Assembly: GCA_963422435.1 (NCBI GenBank)
Contig: OY729511.1
Coordinates: 728,103 to 792,102, forward strand
Length of the DNA stretch: 64,000 bases
Source: Candidatus Binatia bacterium
Lineage (GTDB): Bacteria; Desulfobacterota; Binatia; Bin18
Direction of reading: 5' to 3'
In this document: in pieces, positions 19,467 to 36,374 of the stretch
Layout: each line of letters opens with the position of its first letter
Position numbering within the stretch: the stretch's first letter is position 1
Position numbers and translations under genes: made by a program
Notes under the pieces: generated by a model
What the model saw: the letters and a program-made list of their open reading frames with translations, nothing else
What the model was told of the DNA's origin: nothing
The model's database searches: none

Positions 19467-22400
19467 GTGCCCATATGTCATGTCGAAGAGCCAAAAATGA
19501 GAGCCGCCCTGGAGCCACAGATGGAAAAACACTCCCTCATACTGGACAATCGCTTACGCACAGTCGCCGATTATCTTTGCGCGCATCTGCCGGACGCCGA
19601 AGTCTTTCGCCTGGTTTCGGCGTATTTCAGCGTTTACGGCTACGAGGCACTGCAACACGAACTGAGCGGCATCAAAGACGTGCGGTTTCTCTTTGGCGAC
19701 CCCGCGTCAGCGGGCGAATTGGACCCTGGGGGGAAAGCGCCCAAATCCTTTGACCTGAGTGAAAAGGGATTGTTGCCCAACCACGCCTTGCAGCAGAAAT
19801 ACCTCGCACAGCAATGCGCCGCATGGGTACAAAGCCGGCGGGTCAAAATCCGGTCCATCAGCCAAGCCAATTTTCTGCACGGCAAGATGTATCTCACCGA
19901 ATCCGCGGACGCCGTTGGCTCAGTAGTGGTGGGGAGTTCCAACTTCACCCGGCGCGGGCTGGGCTGTGGCGCGGGCGCGAATCTGGAGATCAATCTGGCG
20001 ACTAGCGATAGGGAATCCTACGCTGAGTTACAAAAGTGGTTTGATGCGCTTTGGGCAGACAAGGAGTTGACCAGGGATGTCAAGCAAGCCGTCCTGGACG
20101 CGCTGAATCGCATAGGCCGAGACCACGCGCCTGAACTCGTCTATTACAAAACCCTGTACGCGCTGTTCCGGGATGACATCGAAGCCAGAAGGGACGGCGA
20201 AAGACAACTGGCGGATGCACACCTGTACGACACCGCAATCTGGAACGCGCTGTACGACTTCCAAAAAGACGGTGCCAAAAGCGCCATTGCCCGCCTGTTG
20301 CGGCACAACGGCTGCATCTTGGCCGACAGCGTCGGGCTGGGGAAAACCTATACGGCGTTGGCGGTCATCAGGTTCTTTGAACTGAGAAATGAACGGGTAC
20401 TGGTCTTATGTCCCAAAAAACTGCGCGACAATTGGGCACTCTATCCGGATTACACCGCAAATACGAACAACCCTTTTGACAAGGATCGCTTCGGTTACAC
20501 GCTGTTGTCACACACCGATTTGTCCCGCGACCAAGGCAAAGCCGGGGATGTTGATCTGGCCCAGTTCAACTGGCGCAATTTTGACTTGGTCGTCATTGAC
20601 GAATCGCATAACTTTCGCAATGCCAGCGTAAGCCGTCGGGACGAAGCAGGCAGAATCATCCGCCTCAGCCGCTACGAGCGACTCCTCGAAGAAGTCATCA
20701 GACAAGGGGCCAAAACAAAGGTACTGATGCTTTCGGCCACACCGGTCAACACCTCGCTCATAGACCTGCGCAATCAGGTCTATCTGATGACCGAAAAGCG
20801 TGAGGACGTTTTCCGGGACAGTTTGGGCATCGGCCACATCGGCGCTCTACTCGGGCAGGCGCAAAAGGCGTTTCAGAAGTGGGAAGAGGACGGCCAAAAA
20901 GACAAGACGGCGCTGCTGGAAAAATTGGGTGCCGATTTTTTTCGTTTACTCGGGGGTGTTTCCATTTCCCGCTCGCGGCGGCAGATCAAAAAATTCTACG
21001 CCGAGGAAATGAGCCGTATCGGCGAGTTCCCAACCCGCCAAAAACCGCAAAATTATTATCCGCCAACCGATTTGCAAGGCGTTTTATCCTACACGGATTT
21101 GTCCGAGCAGATAGAGCAATTCGCCCTGTCCATCTACCGGCCCTCCACCTACGTTGCCAGCGAACAGGCAAAGCAGCGCTTGGCCAAAGAAAAGCAAGAG
21201 CAACACTTCAATCAGCTAGACCGCGAACGCTTTTTGATCGGTATGATGCGGGTGAACTTTCTGAAACGGCTGGAGAGCTCGGCCCACTCGCTCACGGAAA
21301 CGCTCAGTCGCGCTATTGGCAAAATAGACGCCCTGCTGAAAAAGATAGAACGGTACGAACAGCAACAGACCCTACAGGACGCCCAAGCCGACATCCTGCC
21401 GGACGACGATGAAGACGACGAGGACTTTCTGATCAATCGGGCGCGGAACCCGTATCACCTCCAGGAATTGGATCTGCCGCGTTGGAAAACGGACTTGCTG
21501 AAAGATAGGGAGACCCTGACAGGAGCGTGGAAAAAGGTTGCAGCCATTGCGCCCGAGCGAGACGGCAAGCTACAGGAGCTTCGGAAGCATATCCGTGAAA
21601 AGACGGAGAACCCGACGACCGACCAAGACGGCAATCCCAATCGCAAGCTGCTGGTATTCACCACCTTCAAGGATACCGCCCGATACCTGTACACACACCT
21701 GTCGGATGTCGCCACGGAATTAGGCCTGAGCATGGTGATGGTCGCCGGGGATACAACGCAAACTACCTTTGGCGACAACAACTTTAACGCAATTCTGACC
21801 AACTTCGCACCGCGGGCACGCGGACGCACCGAGGGCACGAGCGGCGAAATCGATGTGCTGATTGCCACCGACTGCATTTCGGAGGGGCAGAATCTTCAGG
21901 ACTGCGACACGGTCTTGAACTACGACATCCATTGGAATCCGGTGCGTCTCATTCAGCGCTTCGGGCGGGTTGACCGCATCGGCAGCCGTCACAAGTCGAT
22001 ACGGATGCTCAACTACTGGCCGACCAAAGACATGGAGGTGTATTTGCGCCTGCAAAGTCGCGTGGAGGCCCGCATGGCCTTGGCGGACGCGGCGGCCAGC
22101 GGCAACGATGACCCGTTGAACGAGTCCACCTTTGAGCAGGCCCAGATGGAACTGAATTTCCGCGACCAGCAATTGCAACAACTGCGCCAAGAGGTGCTGG
22201 ACTTGGACGATTTGTCCGACGGCGTGGTCATGAGCGATTTTACCTTGGATTACTTCTTTGCCCAACTGCTGCGCTATCTGGAGAAAAACAAGGCGGAATT
22301 GGAAGCGACCCCTAACGGCGCATACGCGGTCACACAAGGCGAGGACAATACTATAAGACCGGGGGTGCTGTTTTTTCTGCGTCAGCGCAACGCGAGTGCG

Positions 22401-22799
22401 GACAAACAAGAAAAAATCGCCAGCCCAATTCATCCGTATTATGCGGTGTATATCCGCAACAGCGGCGACATTCGCTATAGTTGCGCCAACGCCCGACAGG
22501 TGTTGGAGGTATTTGAAGCGTCGGCAATTGGCAAGACCAAACCGCTGCAAAGGCTGTGCGACCAGTTTGACCGCGAAATTCAGAACGGCACTGACATGAG
22601 CCATTATGATAAACTGTTGGACGCAGTGATTACCCACATCAGCAGGGCAAACACCACAACCCAAATAACACATCTGGGGATTGGCGGTCAGCGCGACATC
22701 AAACTGCCCGTGCAATCCGCCAGTCCGAGCAACGGCGATTTCGAGTTGGTCACGTGGCTCGTTGTGCTTGAACCACGGGCTGACCCCAGGGCAAAATAA
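19467..22799 (+). CDS. PLD(HKD)-family nuclease domain fused to SNF2-family helicase
   Basis: N-terminal HKD-like motif FLHGKMYLTE....GSSNFT. SNF2 motifs: I ILADSVGLGKTYTA, II LVVIDESHNFRN, III LMLSATPVNT, V/VI VLIATDCISEGQNLQD...QRFGRVDRIGS. GTG start at 19467; alternative ATG at 19497. Confidence 0.85.
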   Translation: MPICHVEEPKMRAALEPQMEKHSLILDNRLRTVADYLCAHLPDAEVFRLVSAYFSVYGYEALQHELSGIKDVRFLFGDPASAGELDPGGKAPKSFDLSEKGLLPNHALQQKYLAQQCAAWVQSRRVKIRSISQANFLHGKMYLTESADAVGSVVVGSSNFTRRGLGCGAGANLEINLATSDRESYAELQKWFDALWADKELTRDVKQAVLDALNRIGRDHAPELVYYKTLYALFRDDIEARRDGERQLADAHLYDTAIWNALYDFQKDGAKSAIARLLRHNGCILADSVGLGKTYTALAVIRFFELRNERVLVLCPKKLRDNWALYPDYTANTNNPFDKDRFGYTLLSHTDLSRDQGKAGDVDLAQFNWRNFDLVVIDESHNFRNASVSRRDEAGRIIRLSRYERLLEEVIRQGAKTKVLMLSATPVNTSLIDLRNQVYLMTEKREDVFRDSLGIGHIGALLGQAQKAFQKWEEDGQKDKTALLEKLGADFFRLLGGVSISRSRRQIKKFYAEEMSRIGEFPTRQKPQNYYPPTDLQGVLSYTDLSEQIEQFALSIYRPSTYVASEQAKQRLAKEKQEQHFNQLDRERFLIGMMRVNFLKRLESSAHSLTETLSRAIGKIDALLKKIERYEQQQTLQDAQADILPDDDEDDEDFLINRARNPYHLQELDLPRWKTDLLKDRETLTGAWKKVAAIAPERDGKLQELRKHIREKTENPTTDQDGNPNRKLLVFTTFKDTARYLYTHLSDVATELGLSMVMVAGDTTQTTFGDNNFNAILTNFAPRARGRTEGTSGEIDVLIATDCISEGQNLQDCDTVLNYDIHWNPVRLIQRFGRVDRIGSRHKSIRMLNYWPTKDMEVYLRLQSRVEARMALADAAASGNDDPLNESTFEQAQMELNFRDQQLQQLRQEVLDLDDLSDGVVMSDFTLDYFFAQLLRYLEKNKAELEATPNGAYAVTQGEDNTIRPGVLFFLRQRNASADKQEKIASPIHPYYAVYIRNSGDIRYSCANARQVLEVFEASAIGKTKPLQRLCDQFDREIQNGTDMSHYDKLLDAVITHISRANTTTQITHLGIGGQRDIKLPVQSASPSNGDFELVTWLVVLEPRADPRAK

Positions 22800-22813
22800 G
22801 CGGGGTCATCACC

Positions 22814-23095
22814 ATGCTGTATTTTACAGACGAAGAACTGCTGCAAATCATCGCAGCCGGCGAATCCGACCGCGTCGAGTTCAAGGAGTCTTTATCCGGC
22901 GACGCCGCCACCAGAATCAGGGAAGCCATCTGCGCCTTTGCCAACGATTTGGCCGGTCACGACAAACCCGGTTTTGTGTTCGTAGGCGTGAAGGACGACC
23001 GAACAATGGGTGATCTCGTTGCCGCCACCGACGCCCGCAGGGCTTTGGCGACAAAGATAGTGCACAAAATCGGGCTTGGCCCGGGTCTCGAATAA
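22814..23095 (+). pseudogene. AlbA_2 (Schlafen-like DNA-binding) domain fragment
   Basis: ESDRVEFKESL...ICAFANDLAGHDKPGFVFVGVKDD matches the AlbA_2 N-terminal domain. Only 93 aa, and it overlaps the start of the downstream methyltransferase. Confidence 0.45.
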
Positions 23096-23117
23096 CCCGC
23101 CTCACAAAAGAAGCAAC

Positions 23118-26100
23118 ATGGACCGAGCAAAAGGGCATAGACGCACTGACACGCTGGTAGAAGCGGTGAAAGCCGGCCTTGCGACAATGCCAACTGACGA
23201 TGTATTGACAACGGCTCAAAACCTGCTCGGGGTTCTGGGCTACCGGAGCAGCCGCACGCTGCACGGCCAGTCCGGCAATGTTGACGACTTCATCGGGCAG
23301 TTCCCCGCTCCCAAGTCCAACACGGCGACCGAACAGGCGTTCCGCGAAAATGTCCAATCCGTACAGTTCGTCTTTCAACTCACAAGTGATGAAATTGCCT
23401 CAGCCAAGCCGCCAACGCCCGGGCTTGAGACCGCTTCCTTTGACACAGGACACCCGCAGAGTTTTTTCTTTTTCGCCGTTGAGTTGAAGGAAGCCAACTA
23501 CGCCCGGAGCAAATACGCCGAGTTCACGCGCGAGCTGAACAAGCGACTGATTGCGCCAACGGTGGTGCTTTTCACAACACAACAAGGTCGTCTCACGTTG
23601 GCTTTTGTTCACCGCCGGCAACACAAACATGACCCGAGCCGTGATGTATTGGGCAGTGTGTCGCTGGTGCGTGACATCAATCCAACTCAGCCGCACCGCG
23701 CCCACCTGGACATCCTGGCCGAACTGTCGCTGGAACATCTTCTGTCTTGGATGAGCGACCACAACAAGCCCCATGATTTCGATGGCCTGTTAGCGGCCTG
23801 GCTCAACGCCCTGAATACCGAAGCCCTTAACAAACGGTTCTACACCGAGCTGTTCGACTGGTTCGAGTGGACGGTAGGCGAGGCGACCTTCCCGACCCAA
23901 GAACAGAAAGTCTTGCCACCCGAAGAGCATAGTATTCGCCTCATTACTCGCCTGCTGTTTGTCTGGTTCATCAAGGAGAAAAGGCTGATTGCGGAGGATT
24001 TGTTCAACGAGACGAAAATTGCAGACCTGTTAAAAAACTACGACCGCGACACGGGCGATTCGTACTACCGCGCCGTGCTGCAAAACCTGTTTTTCGCCAC
24101 CCTGAACACCGAGATAGACAAGCGCGGCTTCAGCAAAGAGAAAGACTCTACCCACCGCAATTTTTCGCTGTACCGCTACAAGTCGGAGATAAGCGACCCG
24201 GAAAAACTGCTGGCCTTATTCGCCCGAACACCATTCATCAACGGTGGTTTATTCGACTGTCTGGACAGCGAAGAAGGCATCCGGGACGGCGGCTACCGGA
24301 TTGACTGCTTTTCTGACAACGAGCGGCATTACACCAAGTTGAGCCTTCCCAACCGTCTGTTCTTTGGCGAACATGGGCTGATTCCCCTGTTCAACCGCTA
24401 CAAGTTCACGGTGGAGGAGAACACGCCGGTCGAGCAGGAAGTGGCGCTAGACCCGGAGCTTCTGGGCAAGGTGTTCGAGAATCTGCTGGCCGCCTACAAC
24501 CCGGAAACCCGCCAAACCGCCCGCAAGCAGACCGGCTCGTATTACACGCCGCGCCCGGTAGTGGACTACATGGTGGACGAGGCTCTGCTGGCATCGCTCG
24601 CGCAGCAATGCCGGCCAACCGACGGTGCCGCCACGTTCTGGCAGGAGCGGCTGCGGTATCTCTTGAATTATGAGGACGCTTTCAGCGATGCAGACGAACT
24701 GTTTGACAAGGACGAAGCAGCAGGTATCGTGCGCACCATTGCGGGCCTCAAGATACTCGACCCGGCGGTTGGCTCTGGCGCTTTTCCGATGGGTGTCTTG
24801 CACAAGCTGACCTTGGCGTTGAGAAGAATCGACCCCGACAACACCCGCTGGGCAACTCTGCAAAAAGAACGCGCCCGAGAAAAGGCGGACGCAGCGTTCG
24901 AGACCAAAGACCGGCACGAGCGCGATGCTGAACTGCTGGAAATCAGCGAGACCTTTGAAAAGTATGCAGGCGACTTCGGGCGCAAGCTGTACCTGATTCA
25001 AAACAGCATCTTCGGCGTGGACATTCAGCCCATCGCCTGTCAGATTGCCAAGCTGCGCTTTTTCATCTCGCTGGCGATTGAACAGGAAGCCAACAACAAC
25101 CCCAACGACAACTACGGCATCAAGCCTCTGCCCAATCTGGAAACGCGCTTCATCGCCGCGGATACGCTGCTGAAGCTCAGCGGTGAGCGGATGCTGACCA
25201 GCGAAAAAGCGCAGATTTTGGAGCATCAGTTGCTTGAAAACCGCGAGCGGCATTTTCATGCCACCACGCGCCAGAAGAAACTGGCTTACAAAAAAGAAGA
25301 CAAGCGATTGCGCGGAGAATTGGCGCAGGCATTAGAAAGCCTTGGATTTCCCACGGATGACGCCAACAAAATCGCCCACTGGGACCCCTACGATCAGAAT
25401 GCAACGGCGGCTTGGTTCGATGCCGAATATATGTTTGGCGTGACCGGCGGCTTCGACGTGGTGCTGGGCAATCCGCCGTATATCCAGTTGCAGAAGAACG
25501 GCGGCACATTGGGCAGGAAATACGCGGGGCAGGACTTTCAAACCTTTGTTCGCTCCGGGGACATTTACCAGTTGTTCTATGAACGTGCCGGTCAACTGCT
25601 GAGCGACCAAGGGCACCTGTGCTTCATTACGTCCAATAGCTGGTTGAAGGCCAAATACGGCGAGAAGCTGCGCCGCTACTTCACAGACAAGCACACGCCC
25701 ATGAAACTGCTGGAAATGGGTAAGGACATCTTTGAAAACGCCATTGTGGATAACAACATCCTGCTGGTCAGAGCCGGCAAGAGCGATACCGTCGGCAGCG
25801 CCGTTGACGTGGAACGCCTGCCCGACCAAACCTTCCCGCCGGCTGAAAAACTCTGGGGTAAACTCCGGCTCCGAGACAGCGAGCCGTGGATGGCACTGTC
25901 TGCCGTCGAGCGGGGCATCATGGACAAGATGCAGGCCATCGGTACGCCGCTGAAAGAATGGGATATTGCCATTAACTACGGAATAAAAACCGGCTACAAC
26001 GCCGCGTTTATCGTCGATAAAAAGACCAAAAACGCACTGGTTGCCGAAGACCCCAGGTCGGAAGAGCTACTGAAACCGATTCTGCGCGGAAGGGATATCA

Positions 26101-26588
26101 AGCGCTATCGGGTGGAATGGGCGAGACTGTGGGTGATTGATTCACACAACGGTTACGGCGATGTGCCGCCAATCAATGTTGATGATTATATCGCCATCAA
26201 GCGGCATCTGGATCAATTCTATCCTCAGTTGAAAAAGCGGCAAGATAAGGGAATAACGCCGTACAATCTGCGCCATTGTGCTTACCACGAAGAGTTTCTG
26301 CGCGATAAGCTCGTTTGGATGGATCTGTCGCCACAAGGCCGGTTCGCCTACTCCAACGAGGAAGTGTATTGCAACAATAAGGCGTTCCTGATGATAGGTT
26401 TTCCGTTGAAATATCTCTGCGCGGTGTTGAACAGCACCATTGTCACTTGGCTGGTCAATAAAACTGCTCGGACAACCGGAGTCGGATTAACACAATGGGA
26501 AAAATTCACCGTCGAAGCTATCCCTATCCCCAACATCCCTGCCATAGAGCAACACCCGTTCATCCGCTTGATTGACCGTATCCTGTAA
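23118..26588 (+). CDS. MmeI / PglX-like large N6-adenine DNA methyltransferase (Type IIL/IIG-like)
   Basis: Motif X TGSYYTPRPVVDYMV, motif I LKILDPAVGSGAFP, motif IV VVLGNPPYIQ. FINGGLFD as in MmeI. N-terminal D-x12-ELK arrangement (FDTGHPQSFFFFAVELK) resembles the MmeI PD-ExK. ORF ends at TAA 26586-26588, though the conserved C-terminal tail continues in frame. Confidence 0.85.
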   Translation: MDRAKGHRRTDTLVEAVKAGLATMPTDDVLTTAQNLLGVLGYRSSRTLHGQSGNVDDFIGQFPAPKSNTATEQAFRENVQSVQFVFQLTSDEIASAKPPTPGLETASFDTGHPQSFFFFAVELKEANYARSKYAEFTRELNKRLIAPTVVLFTTQQGRLTLAFVHRRQHKHDPSRDVLGSVSLVRDINPTQPHRAHLDILAELSLEHLLSWMSDHNKPHDFDGLLAAWLNALNTEALNKRFYTELFDWFEWTVGEATFPTQEQKVLPPEEHSIRLITRLLFVWFIKEKRLIAEDLFNETKIADLLKNYDRDTGDSYYRAVLQNLFFATLNTEIDKRGFSKEKDSTHRNFSLYRYKSEISDPEKLLALFARTPFINGGLFDCLDSEEGIRDGGYRIDCFSDNERHYTKLSLPNRLFFGEHGLIPLFNRYKFTVEENTPVEQEVALDPELLGKVFENLLAAYNPETRQTARKQTGSYYTPRPVVDYMVDEALLASLAQQCRPTDGAATFWQERLRYLLNYEDAFSDADELFDKDEAAGIVRTIAGLKILDPAVGSGAFPMGVLHKLTLALRRIDPDNTRWATLQKERAREKADAAFETKDRHERDAELLEISETFEKYAGDFGRKLYLIQNSIFGVDIQPIACQIAKLRFFISLAIEQEANNNPNDNYGIKPLPNLETRFIAADTLLKLSGERMLTSEKAQILEHQLLENRERHFHATTRQKKLAYKKEDKRLRGELAQALESLGFPTDDANKIAHWDPYDQNATAAWFDAEYMFGVTGGFDVVLGNPPYIQLQKNGGTLGRKYAGQDFQTFVRSGDIYQLFYERAGQLLSDQGHLCFITSNSWLKAKYGEKLRRYFTDKHTPMKLLEMGKDIFENAIVDNNILLVRAGKSDTVGSAVDVERLPDQTFPPAEKLWGKLRLRDSEPWMALSAVERGIMDKMQAIGTPLKEWDIAINYGIKTGYNAAFIVDKKTKNALVAEDPRSEELLKPILRGRDIKRYRVEWARLWVIDSHNGYGDVPPINVDDYIAIKRHLDQFYPQLKKRQDKGITPYNLRHCAYHEEFLRDKLVWMDLSPQGRFAYSNEEVYCNNKAFLMIGFPLKYLCAVLNSTIVTWLVNKTARTTGVGLTQWEKFTVEAIPIPNIPAIEQHPFIRLIDRIL

Positions 26589-26708
26589 GCCAAAGCCGAC
26601 AACCCATCCGCGGATGCCAGCGAGCAGGAAGCGGAGATCAACCGGCTGGTGTATGGGCTATATGACCTGACGGAGGAAGAGATTAAACTTGTGGAGCAGA
26701 TGAGATAG
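26589..26708 (+). pseudogene. in-frame continuation (conserved methyltransferase C-terminal tail) cut off by the premature TAA
   Basis: AKADNPSADASEQEAEINRLVYGLYDLTEEEIKLVEQMR-TAG matches the ...EAEIDRLVYxLYGLTEEEIxIVE tail typical of Type I/IIG methyltransferases. Confidence 0.55.
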
Positions 26709-26755: not shown

Positions 26756-27145
26756 CTACTTGCCCTCGTTGCTACCCGAGGTTTTGTACAAGTCATCAAA
26801 ATGCCACAACTTTTCTATTAAATACTTAAGCAAAACACCCAAGGCACTACTAATAATATCCAGTGTAAAACCCAGTCCGGTGCTTGCCTGAAAACTTCCT
26901 GATGCTATTAGCCAAATTGCTACCGCAATTAGAACTATAATTATCAAGCAAAGGAAAGCCGATGCGGCTCTTGAAAACCAGGTTTGCCAAGCGAGATGCT
27001 TGAACCGGGAAATCTCTACGGTATGGCTATGTTCCTGCTGTCGGCTTTCTAATCCTTGCTCATGCTCTTGCTTTGCAGTCCCCCTTGGAGCTTCCTGTTT
27101 CTGCTCATCCAGTCGCGGGTCTTTAATGGGGGGTCTGTCATTCAT
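26756..27145 (-). CDS. small 2-TM membrane protein (candidate toxin partner of Panacea gene)
   Basis: 129 aa. Charged N-terminus then hydrophobic helices FLCLIIIVLIAVAIWLIA and GFTLDIISSALGVLL. Its start codon abuts the stop of the upstream Panacea gene. Confidence 0.5.
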   Translation of the reverse strand: MNDRPPIKDPRLDEQKQEAPRGTAKQEHEQGLESRQQEHSHTVEISRFKHLAWQTWFSRAASAFLCLIIIVLIAVAIWLIASGSFQASTGLGFTLDIISSALGVLLKYLIEKLWHFDDLYKTSGSNEGK

Positions 27146-27608
27146 TTAGTTGCTCATGATCTGTTTGAAATGTTTCTTTATTTCTTCCCGGTTTAATTTG
27201 TTGTTTGCTTTTTGCTTAGCCGATGACCAGGGTGTGTCTGATTCATGTGTCAAATTTGAAAGGTATAAACCAGAGTAAGGAGAATAGAGGTCCCAAACCT
27301 GGCCCAGCACCCAGTGGAAATCAACATCCTCCTCAGGCACTCCCTCTCTATCCACGGGTCCATATAATTCCCAGTTTTCCTTACTGATAGGCAAGCTTCC
27401 AAAAGTTTTGCGCATGATAGATGTCCGGGAATACTGGTCCATAGGGCCAAGCCTCTGGCTCATTCTCGATTGCTGGCTGGTTAAAACACGCCAAGTGCCA
27501 TCCATGAACCAGATATGCCAGTTTTTGTAACTTAAGTGGGCTAATCGGTGTATTTTGCTCAAACGACAGCTTCAACACACTATTGGCAACTTGCAGTGCA
27601 GAATACAT
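27146..27608 (-). pseudogene. Panacea-domain (DUF4065, SocA/GepA-like) protein, frameshifted
   Basis: N-terminal frame (27608->27381) MYSALQVANSVLKL...LKLQKLAYLVHGWHLA...EAWPYGPVFPDIYHA. C-terminal frame (from ~27409 to 27146) KTFGSLPISKENWELYGPV...LSNLTHESDTPW. The two halves join at an A4/T4 homopolymer near 27397-27406. AGGAGG RBS upstream of 27608. Confidence 0.65.
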
Positions 27609-27830: not shown

Positions 27831-28010
27831 CCAATCCCTAAAATTTCCGAATCGGAACGACAATCGTTCATAGCGTTGGTGGATAAAGTAATCGCTGGTA
27901 AAGAAAGCGGGTACAGACACCATCGGATGGAAGCCGAAATCGACGCGCGGATGTATGAGCCTTACAATCTGGCGGATAAGGAGATTGCGGCTGTGGATGA
28001 GTGCAAGTGA
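27831..28010 (+). pseudogene. remnant copy 2 of methyltransferase C-terminal tail
   Basis: IPKISESERQSFIALVDKVIAGK....MEAEIDARMYEPYNLADKEIAAVDECK-TGA parallels IPNIPAIEQHPFIRLIDRIL-AKADNP...EAEINRLVYGLYDLTEEEIKLVE of the full gene. Confidence 0.5.
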
Positions 28011-28110: not shown

Positions 28111-28518
28111 ATGAATGGCATGGAAAAGGTCGTCAAACACCTTGAGATGACCCAAACCGTAATCAACCGATTGGGTAATAACTCCTTCCAACTCAAAGGT
28201 TGGAGCATGACCCTCATTGTGGCCGCGATGGTACTAATTGGTCGATATGGCTTGCAGAACCCATGCATCATCCTGACGTTTATCCTCCCTATTTTGGGAT
28301 TCTGGATTCTAGATGGGTACTTCCTTTGGCAGGAGAGGTTGTTCCGACAGGTCTATGATGAAATCAGGCAGCAAGATAACACCGACTTCAAGATGGATGT
28401 GATGAAGCACAGGGACAAACCCAAATGCAGTTGGTGGTCTGCCGCATTTTCTGTCACGCTCGTTATTTTTTACGCGGTCGAATTCGTATTTATTCTTGCC
28501 ACTTTCGTCATACTTTAA
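28111..28518 (+). CDS. small 3-TM membrane protein (upstream partner of TIR-like gene)
   Basis: 135 aa. Hydrophobic helices WSMTLIVAAMVLIG, CIILTFILPILGFWIL, WWSAAFSVTLVIFYAVEFVFILATFVIL. AT-rich codon usage; 14-nt gap to next gene. Confidence 0.55.
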   Translation: MNGMEKVVKHLEMTQTVINRLGNNSFQLKGWSMTLIVAAMVLIGRYGLQNPCIILTFILPILGFWILDGYFLWQERLFRQVYDEIRQQDNTDFKMDVMKHRDKPKCSWWSAAFSVTLVIFYAVEFVFILATFVIL

Positions 28519-28532
28519 ATGGAGGCGCCAGC

Positions 28533-28970
28533 ATGAGACACGTATTTTTTAGCTTCAAATATAAAGATGTTTCCAGAGCAATGGTTGTGAGAAATAGCTG
28601 GGTTACTCAAGGTAACGAAGCGGCTGGTTTTATAGATGCTGCGGATTTTGAGAAGATCAAACGGCAGGGTGATGCATCCATCAGACGCTGGATTGATAAC
28701 CAGCTACAAGGCACTTCCGTAACCGTCGTCCTAGTTGGACAACACACATGCAGTAGTCGTTGGGTAAGGTACGAAATAGATAAAAGTATTGAAAGAGGCA
28801 ACGGTCTTCTGGGTATCGACATAAGTAAAATCAACGATTTACAGGGACGCACCAGCGAACTATGTGGACAAATCCCAAAGGGTTCCCCATTCTACTTGTG
28901 GGACAAAGACAATGGTTATGGCAATCTCGGCGACTGGATTGAAAAAGCCGCACAGCAAGCCGGAAGATAG
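28533..28970 (+). CDS. TIR-like domain protein (DUF1863 / ThsB-like)
   Basis: GGAGG RBS, ATG 28533. MRHVFFSFKYKDVSRAMVVRNSWVT...SSRWVRYEIDKSIERGNGLLGI matches the ThsB/DUF1863 TIR-like signature as I recall it. Confidence 0.65.
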   Translation: MRHVFFSFKYKDVSRAMVVRNSWVTQGNEAAGFIDAADFEKIKRQGDASIRRWIDNQLQGTSVTVVLVGQHTCSSRWVRYEIDKSIERGNGLLGIDISKINDLQGRTSELCGQIPKGSPFYLWDKDNGYGNLGDWIEKAAQQAGR

Positions 28971-28971
28971 G

Positions 28972-29069
28972 GACACCACCGAACAGGAAGCCGGGATAGA
29001 TCACAACTGGTCTACGCGCTGTACGGGCTGACGGAGGGGGAATTTGACATTGTGGAGGGGGAAAGATGA
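28972..29069 (+). pseudogene. remnant copy 3 of methyltransferase C-terminal tail (carries an indel)
   Basis: DTTEQEAGID (one frame) + QLVYALYGLTEGEFDIVEGER-TGA (adjacent frame) parallels DASEQEAEINRLVYGLYDLTEEEIKLVE. The TGA overlaps the ATG of the next gene (ATGA). Confidence 0.45.
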
Positions 29070-30295
29070 GTGCGTCCGAACGGCAAGACACAACCTCTAC
29101 AATCTTGGCTTTGATTCAGGAAATCATGGAAAAGTCCGCCGATGGAGACTATATCTATCGCGGTGAACCAGAGTGCTACCCCAAAGTATCCTCAACGCTT
29201 CATCGCGAATACGCAGAGGTGGATGCGGAGAACTTTAAATTGGAGGACGTCCAGAAGGAGATACTGGAACAGGCCAGGAAATACACAGCCGTAACTGACG
29301 CGCTGGAAATCTTGACAGAACTCCAGCACCACGGCGGCAACACCAATCTTATCGATTTTACGAACGACTGCCACATAGCGCTCTTTTTCGCCTGTGACGG
29401 CTCCCCTGACAAAGATGGCAGGGTTATCCTGCTGAAAAAAGCAACGGAACAAGGCCAGATCAGAGAGCCCCGGAACCCTGTCAACCGCGTCATCGCTTAG
29501 AAGAGCATCTTTGTGCAGCCACCGAAAGGCTTTATTAACCCCGACGGAGAAATCATCATCCCGAAAAACCTCAAACAGCCCATACTGAACCATCTGCGAA
29601 AATACAACGGCATATCCACCGAAACCATCTACAACGACCTGCACGGCTTTATCAAACATCGGGGAATCCACCAAAGCGCCTACACGGAGTTTTACAGAGG
29701 TCTGACTTATTCGAGAAAGGGAGTTGAATCGGCAGACAAGGAAGAACAACAGAGATTCTATGAAAAGGCCATTGCACATTACACTGAAGCCTTGAGATTG
29801 AACCCAAATCTTGCCGAGGCATACAACAACCGGGGCACCGCCAAGGTAGAACTTGGACAACACCAGGAAGCGATTGTGGATTTTGATACGGCGATAGGAA
29901 TCAATCCGAACCATGCCGCAGCCCGCAACAACCGGGGAATCGCCAAGGTAGAACTTGGACAACACCAGGAAGCGATTGTGGATTTTGATACGGCAATAAA
30001 CCTCAATCCGCACGATGCCAAAGCCTACAACAACCGGGGCACCGCCAAGAGAGGACTTGGACAACACCAGGAAGCGATTGTGGATTTTGATACGGCAATA
30101 AACCTCAATCCGCACTATGCCGAAGCCTACTACAACCGGGGCACCGCCAAGAGAGGACTTGGTCGGAATCAGGAAGCCCGCGAAGATTTTCAAACATGCC
30201 TCACCCTGGCAAAAGCACAGGGTAATGCCGAGCTTGTCGAGCTTGCCCAAAAGGCGCTGGATACTCTGGGGCTTGGTAGCGGTAGTTCGGATTAG
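29066..30295 (+). pseudogene. FRG-domain protein with C-terminal TPR repeats, interrupted by in-frame TAG (29498-29500)
   Basis: FRG-like motifs YIYRGEPECYPKVSSTLHRE and LQHHGGNTNLIDFTNDCHIALFFA. ORFs 29066..29500 and 29513..30295 are in the same frame, separated only by the TAG. The C-terminal half is four near-identical TPR units. Confidence 0.55.
29806..30180 (+). repeat. four tandem ~102-bp near-identical repeats (each one TPR unit) inside the FRG-TPR gene
   Basis: Repeating GCCTACAACAACCGGGGCACCGCCAAG...CAACACCAGGAAGCGATTGTGGATTTTGATACGGC(G/A)ATA units with a few substitutions. Confidence 0.8.
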
Positions 30296-36137: not shown

Positions 36138-36301
36138 TGGCAGTCATCCCCTCTCCAACTCCTTTTCTCCCCCATTCATTGCACGAGCACCTATCATAGG
36201 TGAAGGAGGGTAACGGCAATACATACATCCGCCGTCCGATTCTCACGGGGGAGATCAGCCGAGAACCGGCTTGGTGTGCTGCGGGAGGGAAGGGGAAAAG
36301 T

Positions 36302-36374
<73 letters not shown>

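Follow-up and report, generated by a model that had tools for sequence, protein, structure and literature searches.

The closest described systems come from a survey of TIR operons in which seven new Thoeris types were validated (Yirmiya et al., bioRxiv Dec 2025, 10.64898/2025.12.03.692087). Among these, type V consists of ThsB and of ThsF, a protein with three membrane-spanning helices which is annotated as DUF2270 (10.64898/2025.12.03.692087). For the type V system of Bacillus thuringiensis DAR 81934, it was reported that 3'cADPR is made by the TIR protein only upon infection, that cells with the system are poisoned by added 3'cADPR, and that the 3'cADPR sponge Tad1 lowers defence (10.64898/2025.12.03.692087). 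ThsF of the Bacillus homologues was modelled by AlphaFold3 as a homo-heptamer that resembles a channel, with pockets of positive charge between the protomers (10.64898/2025.12.03.692087).

The same logic, in which a nucleotide signal leads to a membrane-disrupting oligomer, is followed by type II Thoeris (ThsC, TM plus Macro), by type VII Thoeris (ThsH, SLATT) and by the TM effectors of CBASS and Pycsar. In type II the signal is His-ADPR, and in type VII it is canonical cADPR (10.64898/2025.12.03.692087). In type I Thoeris, as in Bacillus cereus MSX-D12, the effector is the SIR2-SLOG protein ThsA, which depletes NAD+. A further point of comparison is offered by the PDC systems of PADLOC, which are guilt-by-embedding candidates with no mechanism assigned (Payne et al., 10.1101/2024.01.29.577857).

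We analysed a stretch of 64,000 nucleotides from a Candidatus Binatia bacterium, which is referred to as the window. Like type V Thoeris, it contains a two-gene operon that codes for a TIR protein and a three-TM protein of about 135-141 aa, and like type V this operon is devoid of SIR2, SLOG or Macro domains. On the basis of sequence comparison we consider it very likely that the pair is an intact type V Thoeris anti-phage system, in which ThsB would be the sensor, a 3'cADPR-type molecule the signal and ThsF the membrane effector.

The thsF-thsB pair and its assignment to type V Thoeris

The thsF homologue (28111..28518, + strand, PADLOC PDC-M50A) starts with ATG, codes for 135 aa and ends with a TAA stop codon at 28516-28518. 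It is followed on the same strand by thsB (28533..28970, + strand), which codes for a protein of 145 aa, a predicted TIR sensor and signal synthase of the ThsB type (DUF1863). As read from the sequence, the intergenic spacer (28519..28532, + strand) has 14 nt and carries the Shine-Dalgarno sequence of thsB, GGAGG at 28521-28525, 7 nt ahead of the ATG. A longer ORF (28425-28970) has the same frame as thsB and differs merely by an upstream extension. When the region between the two genes was scanned for promoter-like sites and for terminator-like sites on the + strand, nothing above background was found. The 14-nt spacer with its Shine-Dalgarno sequence implies that thsF and thsB are co-transcribed. 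In homologous loci the gaps are similarly short, about 3-45 nt in most of them. Coordinates, strand and gap are as given in the first-pass annotation. The AT-rich character of the surrounding DNA, which it had also noticed, is borne out by a GC content of 0.457-0.470 across 26-29 kb, compared to about 0.55-0.64 in most other parts of the window; the pair itself is on DNA with 46% GC in a genome with roughly 60% GC.

The N-terminus of ThsB reads MRHVFFSFKYKDVS, and further within the protein SSRWVRYEIDKSIERGNGLLGI is found. That this is a ThsB-type TIR-like protein had been read from such motifs, and the call held up in profile searches against both Pfam and PADLOC. ThsB matches the Pfam family ThsB_TIR (PF08937) with E 3e-25 (89 bits, cutoff 21.2) and the PADLOC ThsB model PDLC00431 with E 1.1e-55. 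It falls into the ThsB_TIR/DUF1863 class, TIR cluster 2612507145. Identity is 53% to the TIR domain of the type I ThsB from B. cereus MSX-D12, 61% to the TIR 2 protein of type III from Pseudomonas aeruginosa, and 73-78% to three TIRs listed as "DUF2270 - Type V" in Table S1 of the survey (IMG ids 2700869427, 2642724563 and 2265063291; 10.64898/2025.12.03.692087). The catalytic Glu, E81 in the motif WVRYEI, is invariant in an alignment with known ThsBs. Two close homologues of the B. thuringiensis ThsB, on plasmids of B. cereus and Priestia, adjoin SIR2 or Macro genes instead; this TIR class is thus common to several Thoeris types and is not diagnostic of type V alone.

The type V ThsB of B. 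thuringiensis DAR 81934 (IMG 2624526259, Table S1) was recovered with 100% identity as P0391. The next gene downstream codes for a protein of 141 aa (WP_074790415.1) with three hydrophobic segments, while the upstream neighbour codes for 271 aa and has no TM segment. The effector listed for DAR 81934 in Table S2 is IMG 2624526260, an id that is consecutive to that of ThsB (10.64898/2025.12.03.692087). Adjacency, the three TM segments, the consecutive ids and an upstream neighbour devoid of TM segments together identify WP_074790415.1 as the B. thuringiensis ThsF. The TM protein from the window shows 38% identity to it over 127 aa (E 2e-30, BLASTP). It is also 40% identical (E 7e-29) to a homologue that is encoded beside a TIR gene on a Terribacillus plasmid, and the ThsB next to that homologue shares 47% identity with the validated ThsB of B. 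thuringiensis. The proposal of a Thoeris-like sensor coupled to a tiny membrane effector is thereby backed by homology to a validated ThsB and a validated ThsF. The gene order differs, being thsF then thsB in the window but thsB then thsF in B. thuringiensis.

Both genes also match a candidate system of PADLOC-DB v2. The two component HMMs of PDC-M50 are matched by the adjacent genes of the window, component A with E 1.5e-38 and component B with E 2.7e-46, although the TIR protein is better described by PDLC00431 than by PDC-M50B. In keeping with the logic by which PDC systems were discovered, the pair in the window is located beside or inside a restriction-modification (RM) system. A full-text literature search for "PDC-M50" returned no paper. 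The novelty that had been implied for the pair is lost with these results: the system is already known, and the pair is a further example of type V Thoeris, to which PDC-M50 of PADLOC corresponds.

Two other Thoeris types were considered and rejected. No SIR2 or SLOG match, as expected for type I, was obtained for the selected ORFs in the 10.5-31.1 kb region, and no Macro domain, as expected for type II, was detected in the 135-aa protein or its neighbours. Effectors with SIR2, SLOG or Macro domains are absent within about 8 kb of the pair. A canonical thsA, which had been named as a finding that would refute the proposal, was likewise not detected in the scan of ORFs from 10.5 to 31 kb.

The ThsF family and its association with TIR genes

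The family of the TM protein is large. At 90% identity, 767 clusters were collected by a word-indexed search, and at 50% identity an exhaustive profile search gave 4,228 clusters with E <= 1e-3, including 2,255 with E <= 1e-10. In a genome scan with one genome per species, 251 thsF loci were found, and the best 80 of these 251 were examined for TIR genes by an iterative search of six-frame translations, using nine TIR seeds. Among these best 80 loci, a full-length TIR gene directly adjoins thsF on the same strand in 42 cases. A truncated or frameshifted TIR gene is found beside thsF in 6 cases, a TIR gene elsewhere within 8 kb in 4 cases, and in the other 28 no TIR gene was detected within 8 kb. 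The same TM family adjoins TIR genes in dozens of unrelated genomes, so that the pairing of thsF and thsB is far beyond chance. A lack of such conservation elsewhere had been named as a finding that would refute the proposal; the result is in favour of the pair, both in these closest loci and on the plasmid, viral and metagenome contigs described below.

Nearly all of the best 80 loci are from metagenome-assembled genomes (MAGs), and their ThsF proteins have 55-91% amino-acid identity. The MAGs were assigned to Poribacteria, Binatia, Nitrospirales, Latescibacterota, Verrucomicrobiota, Gammaproteobacteria, Bdellovibrionales and similar groups. These lineages, which carry the close thsF copies, are typical of marine sponge microbiomes. 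A high ThsF identity across so many phyla, with near-identical copies (70-90% amino-acid identity) among them, implies that the gene has recently been spread by horizontal transfer.

In several loci a single thsF has two or three TIR genes around it, which are of different classes. Directly upstream, 13 loci (L016, L025, L030, L033, L036, L037, L045, L048, L053, L057, L058, L066 and L079) encode a TIR-like protein with a length of about 220-265 aa (e.g. 222 aa) that begins with or contains MARKIFVSYKH. In 7 loci (L018, L020, L027, L040, L053, L054 and L065) the first ThsB_TIR gene is followed in tandem downstream by another one, for about 160 aa. Loci with such extra ThsB classes are multi-sensor type V loci. 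In one further locus (L001), thsF is located between a gene for 205 aa and an AAA ATPase gene.

The ThsF module was also encountered as part of larger proteins. One protein of 378 aa (P0348) has an N-terminal SLOG domain (SLOG cluster2, PF18163, E 1.7e-15) fused to a C-terminal ThsF module, and this is how one would expect the two parts to be arranged if a nucleotide sensor acts through the TM module. Another protein (P0330, 362 aa) has a ThsF-like module at its C-terminus and an unannotated N-terminal region of 225 aa.

Outside of the genome scan, plasmid, viral and metagenome contigs with 9 distinct loci were inspected, and in all of them a TIR gene adjoins thsF. Two families of metagenome contigs (L081/82 and L083-85) carry the pair, with TM proteins of 136 and 138 aa that share the family motifs. 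The pair is present on an Escherichia coli IncC/IncR plasmid, the TM protein of which has matches with identical score on many other plasmids from Enterobacteriaceae, and on a Klebsiella plasmid, on which the matches to TM protein and TIR directly adjoin each other. It also occurs on plasmids of Vibrio chagasii, Clostridium botulinum, Terribacillus goriensis and Priestia megaterium, and on both IMG/VR viral contigs with a relative (L095 and L096). On the C. botulinum plasmid p6CSt (L088), the thsF-thsB pair is located beside terminase genes, and this plasmid is phage-like. With copies on a phage-like plasmid and on contigs predicted to be viral, the system is also phage-borne.

The surrounding defence island

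The setting of the thsF-thsB pair is a defence island, which is partly decaying. It contains a gene for a protein of 1110 aa (19467-22799) that combines an HKD (PLD) domain with a Snf2 helicase and matches PADLOC C3a139 with E 5e-112. Directly downstream is a type IIG restriction-modification enzyme, i.e. a methyltransferase-endonuclease (23076-26588), and these two genes (19467-26588) probably represent a helicase/RM defence unit. A SocA/Panacea antitoxin gene (PF13274, E 8.8e-10) and a gene for a protein of 129 aa follow on the - strand (26756-27608). As the C-terminal half of the 129-aa protein is hydrophobic, it would be a putative membrane toxin, and the two genes are a toxin-antitoxin pair of the PanA type, for which no PADLOC match was obtained. 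The gene downstream of thsB (29066-30295) codes for an FRG domain and TPR repeats and matches the PADLOC candidate PDC-S15; its TPR part contains four copies of a repeat with a period of 102 nt (29710-30195).

Three of these neighbours are broken. The 1170-aa type IIG enzyme is ended 39 codons early by an in-frame TAA at 26586-26588, and in the FRG-TPR gene an in-frame TAG at 29498-29500 separates the FRG domain from the TPR repeats. The SocA/Panacea gene is frameshifted at about 27380-27560 (- strand), so that read-through requires a frameshift. The pair would be active in its host, but with stop codons and a frameshift in the neighbouring genes of a partly decaying island, activity cannot be taken for granted.

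The damage to the neighbours speaks for an inactive remnant, namely a pair which came with horizontally acquired AT-rich DNA and which, within a decaying island, no longer functions in the host. The truncated TIR genes and the orphan thsF genes seen among the best 80 of the 251 loci (6 and 28 cases, respectively) speak for it as well. However, both ORFs in the window are full length for their families, all near-invariant residues as well as the catalytic Glu are kept, canonical Shine-Dalgarno sequence and spacing are retained between thsF and thsB, and a family-wide identity of 70-90% indicates purifying selection. We therefore regard loss of function as very unlikely and prefer to view the pair as an intact type V system.

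The type IIG RM gene has a 3' tail coding for the motif LVYxLYxLTxEEI, three diverged copies of which (65-73% nucleotide identity) are found at 26627-26696, 27929-27998 and 28986-29057. Each of them precedes one cassette: the Panacea toxin-antitoxin pair, the thsF-thsB pair and the FRG-TPR gene, respectively. The second copy reaches into a TaqI_C-like remnant which extends from about 27657. The same layout of RM tails and cassettes is found in one other locus (L010), and an RM tail is located upstream of thsF, on the same strand, in 13 of the best 80 loci from the set of 251. RM-tail copies in front of successive cassettes, both in the window and in L010, are a hint that cassettes may be captured or exchanged by recombination at the ends of RM genes. 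The only tRNA gene in the window, tRNA-Ala (GGC) at 36300-36373 (- strand), is not an obvious integration site, because it is located about 6 kb past the low-GC island with what appear to be housekeeping genes in between.

Architecture of ThsF and a putative mechanism

The hydropathy profile of the 135-aa protein shows three hydrophobic stretches, at about 28-47, 51-73 and 110-135. Using a deep alignment, a monomer model of high confidence was obtained with AF2 (pLDDT 95, pTM 0.86). In this model, two helices (3-46 and 52-86) form a long hairpin, which is followed by a short segment and a third TM helix (115-134). Hydropathy and structure prediction thus agree on the three helices that had been recognized from the sequence. 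According to the model, the membrane would be crossed by the three hydrophobic stretches, with the extensions of the hairpin (3-30 and 74-86) protruding from one side of it. Lys and Arg are frequent in the extensions and in the linker at 74-108 (4 and 8, respectively). Since segments rich in Lys and Arg are on the cytoplasmic side according to the positive-inside rule, extensions and linker are placed in the cytoplasm.

The description of this protein as having no soluble domain is correct in so far as Pfam and NCBIfam scans gave no match above threshold and no enzymatic domain. It passes over about 60 polar residues (1-30 and 74-108), parts of which are highly conserved. In 104 diverse relatives, H10, L11, Q15, R20, S25, F26, K29, W31, W65, L67, D68, L72, E75, R79, M95 and S114 are conserved to at least 90%, with R20 being invariant, and the protein from the window retains all of the near-invariant residues of the family. 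The polar or basic ones among them (H10, Q15, R20, K29, D68, E75 and R79) map to the cytoplasmic extension of the hairpin in the monomer model. We infer that this cluster of conserved residues on the membrane-proximal cytoplasmic hairpin is a putative site of signal binding or gating. Its basic residues are compatible with the charged pockets between protomers reported for type V ThsF.

Affiliation to named protein families is weak. Sub-threshold Pfam matches of the TM protein or its relatives are to PF11683 (DUF3278), PF24838 (8xMP) and PF10028 (DUF2270). The 8xMP match spans nearly all of the validated B. thuringiensis ThsF, but with E 0.012 it is below threshold. The ThsF, 8xMP, DUF3278 and DUF2270 families may be remotely related; a literature search on 8xMP returned nothing relevant, and a profile search of PDB sequences with the TM-family alignment gave only matches at chance level. 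The protein from the window has no match to PF10028 at E <= 10, and weak sub-threshold matches are found in 15 of the 104 diverse relatives (best E 0.004). As the validated B. thuringiensis ThsF was likewise unmatched in the same scan, the PF10028 label does not discriminate members of the ThsF family with the present Pfam HMM. A SLATT effector was ruled out, no SLATT match being obtained for the window protein, 27 close relatives and the 104 diverse ones.

By analogy to the described systems, we propose the following course of events. Upon phage infection, ThsB (28533-28970) would convert NAD+ into a signal of the cyclic ADP-ribose type, most probably 3'cADPR. ThsF (28111-28518) would be a small protein of the inner membrane that forms a ring-shaped homo-oligomer. 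The signal would bind to positively charged pockets formed by those conserved cytoplasmic helices that are close to the membrane (residues about 10-31 and 65-86), and its binding would open or disrupt the membrane. The resulting membrane damage would kill or arrest the infected cell before the phage matures, i.e. the outcome would be abortive infection. The ThsB class, the catalytic Glu and probably also the signal are shared with type I Thoeris from B. cereus MSX-D12, but the NAD+-depleting SIR2-SLOG protein ThsA has no counterpart near the pair and the putative effector would act on the membrane. Unlike the effectors of types II and VII, ThsF has no detectable Macro or SLATT domain and no separate ligand-binding domain.

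The type I ThsB of B. cereus MSX-D12 makes 3'cADPR, in line with 10.64898/2025.12.03.692087, and it is the 53% identity to this protein which leads us to take 3'cADPR as the signal of the window ThsB. It is the most likely candidate, a view that we hold with moderate confidence only. One validated type V variant is unresponsive to added 3'cADPR (10.64898/2025.12.03.692087), and the signal in the window may therefore differ from it. In addition, the three type V systems that were assayed, one of which gave no defence in E. coli, have TIR clusters other than 2612507145 (10.64898/2025.12.03.692087); defence was obtained with TIR clusters 2734579397 and 2612357774, while the window ThsB is from cluster 2612507145. 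It is conceivable, though on balance unlikely, that the combination of ThsF with a DUF1863/ThsB_TIR sensor represents a sub-type of type V with a distinct function, which may respond to a signal other than 3'cADPR. If this were true, the about 60 conserved cytoplasmic residues of the 135-aa protein would be one of the smallest known nucleotide-gated pore modules.

A very unlikely explanation, close to the earlier fallback of a TIR protein that is itself an NADase effector, is an abortive-infection module that does not signal at all, with the TIR protein depleting NAD+ and the membrane protein anchoring or regulating it or sensing, for example, a perturbation of the membrane by the phage. Such TIR effectors are common in bacteria, for which reason CBASS, Pycsar, pAgo and Avs contexts were excluded from the survey, but in the validated homologue ThsB yields 3'cADPR on infection when expressed alone, and external 3'cADPR, when added alone, is toxic only to cells that carry the system (10.64898/2025.12.03.692087). 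The catalytic Glu is present in the window ThsB, and the non-membrane part of ThsF, only about 60 residues, leaves little room for a ligand site; against this, the SLOG-ThsF fusion puts the TM module downstream of a nucleotide sensor, one thsF is often accompanied by two or three ThsB classes, which is the classic Thoeris pattern of many sensors and one effector, and the window ThsB is 53% identical to a type I ThsB known to produce a signal.

With the preferred assignment to type V Thoeris, the locus opens no new question. It is a reasonable candidate to extend the work on type V to ThsB cluster 2612507145, as its ThsB subclass is outside those paired with ThsF in assays. The comparison establishes a direct sequence link between the PADLOC candidate PDC-M50 and ThsF. 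As the published DUF2270 label cannot be recovered with the current Pfam model, annotation based on Pfam will miss the ThsF effector. The ThsF family is large, with 4,228 clusters at 50% identity, and recurs beside TIR genes; a monomer model of high confidence has now been added to it.
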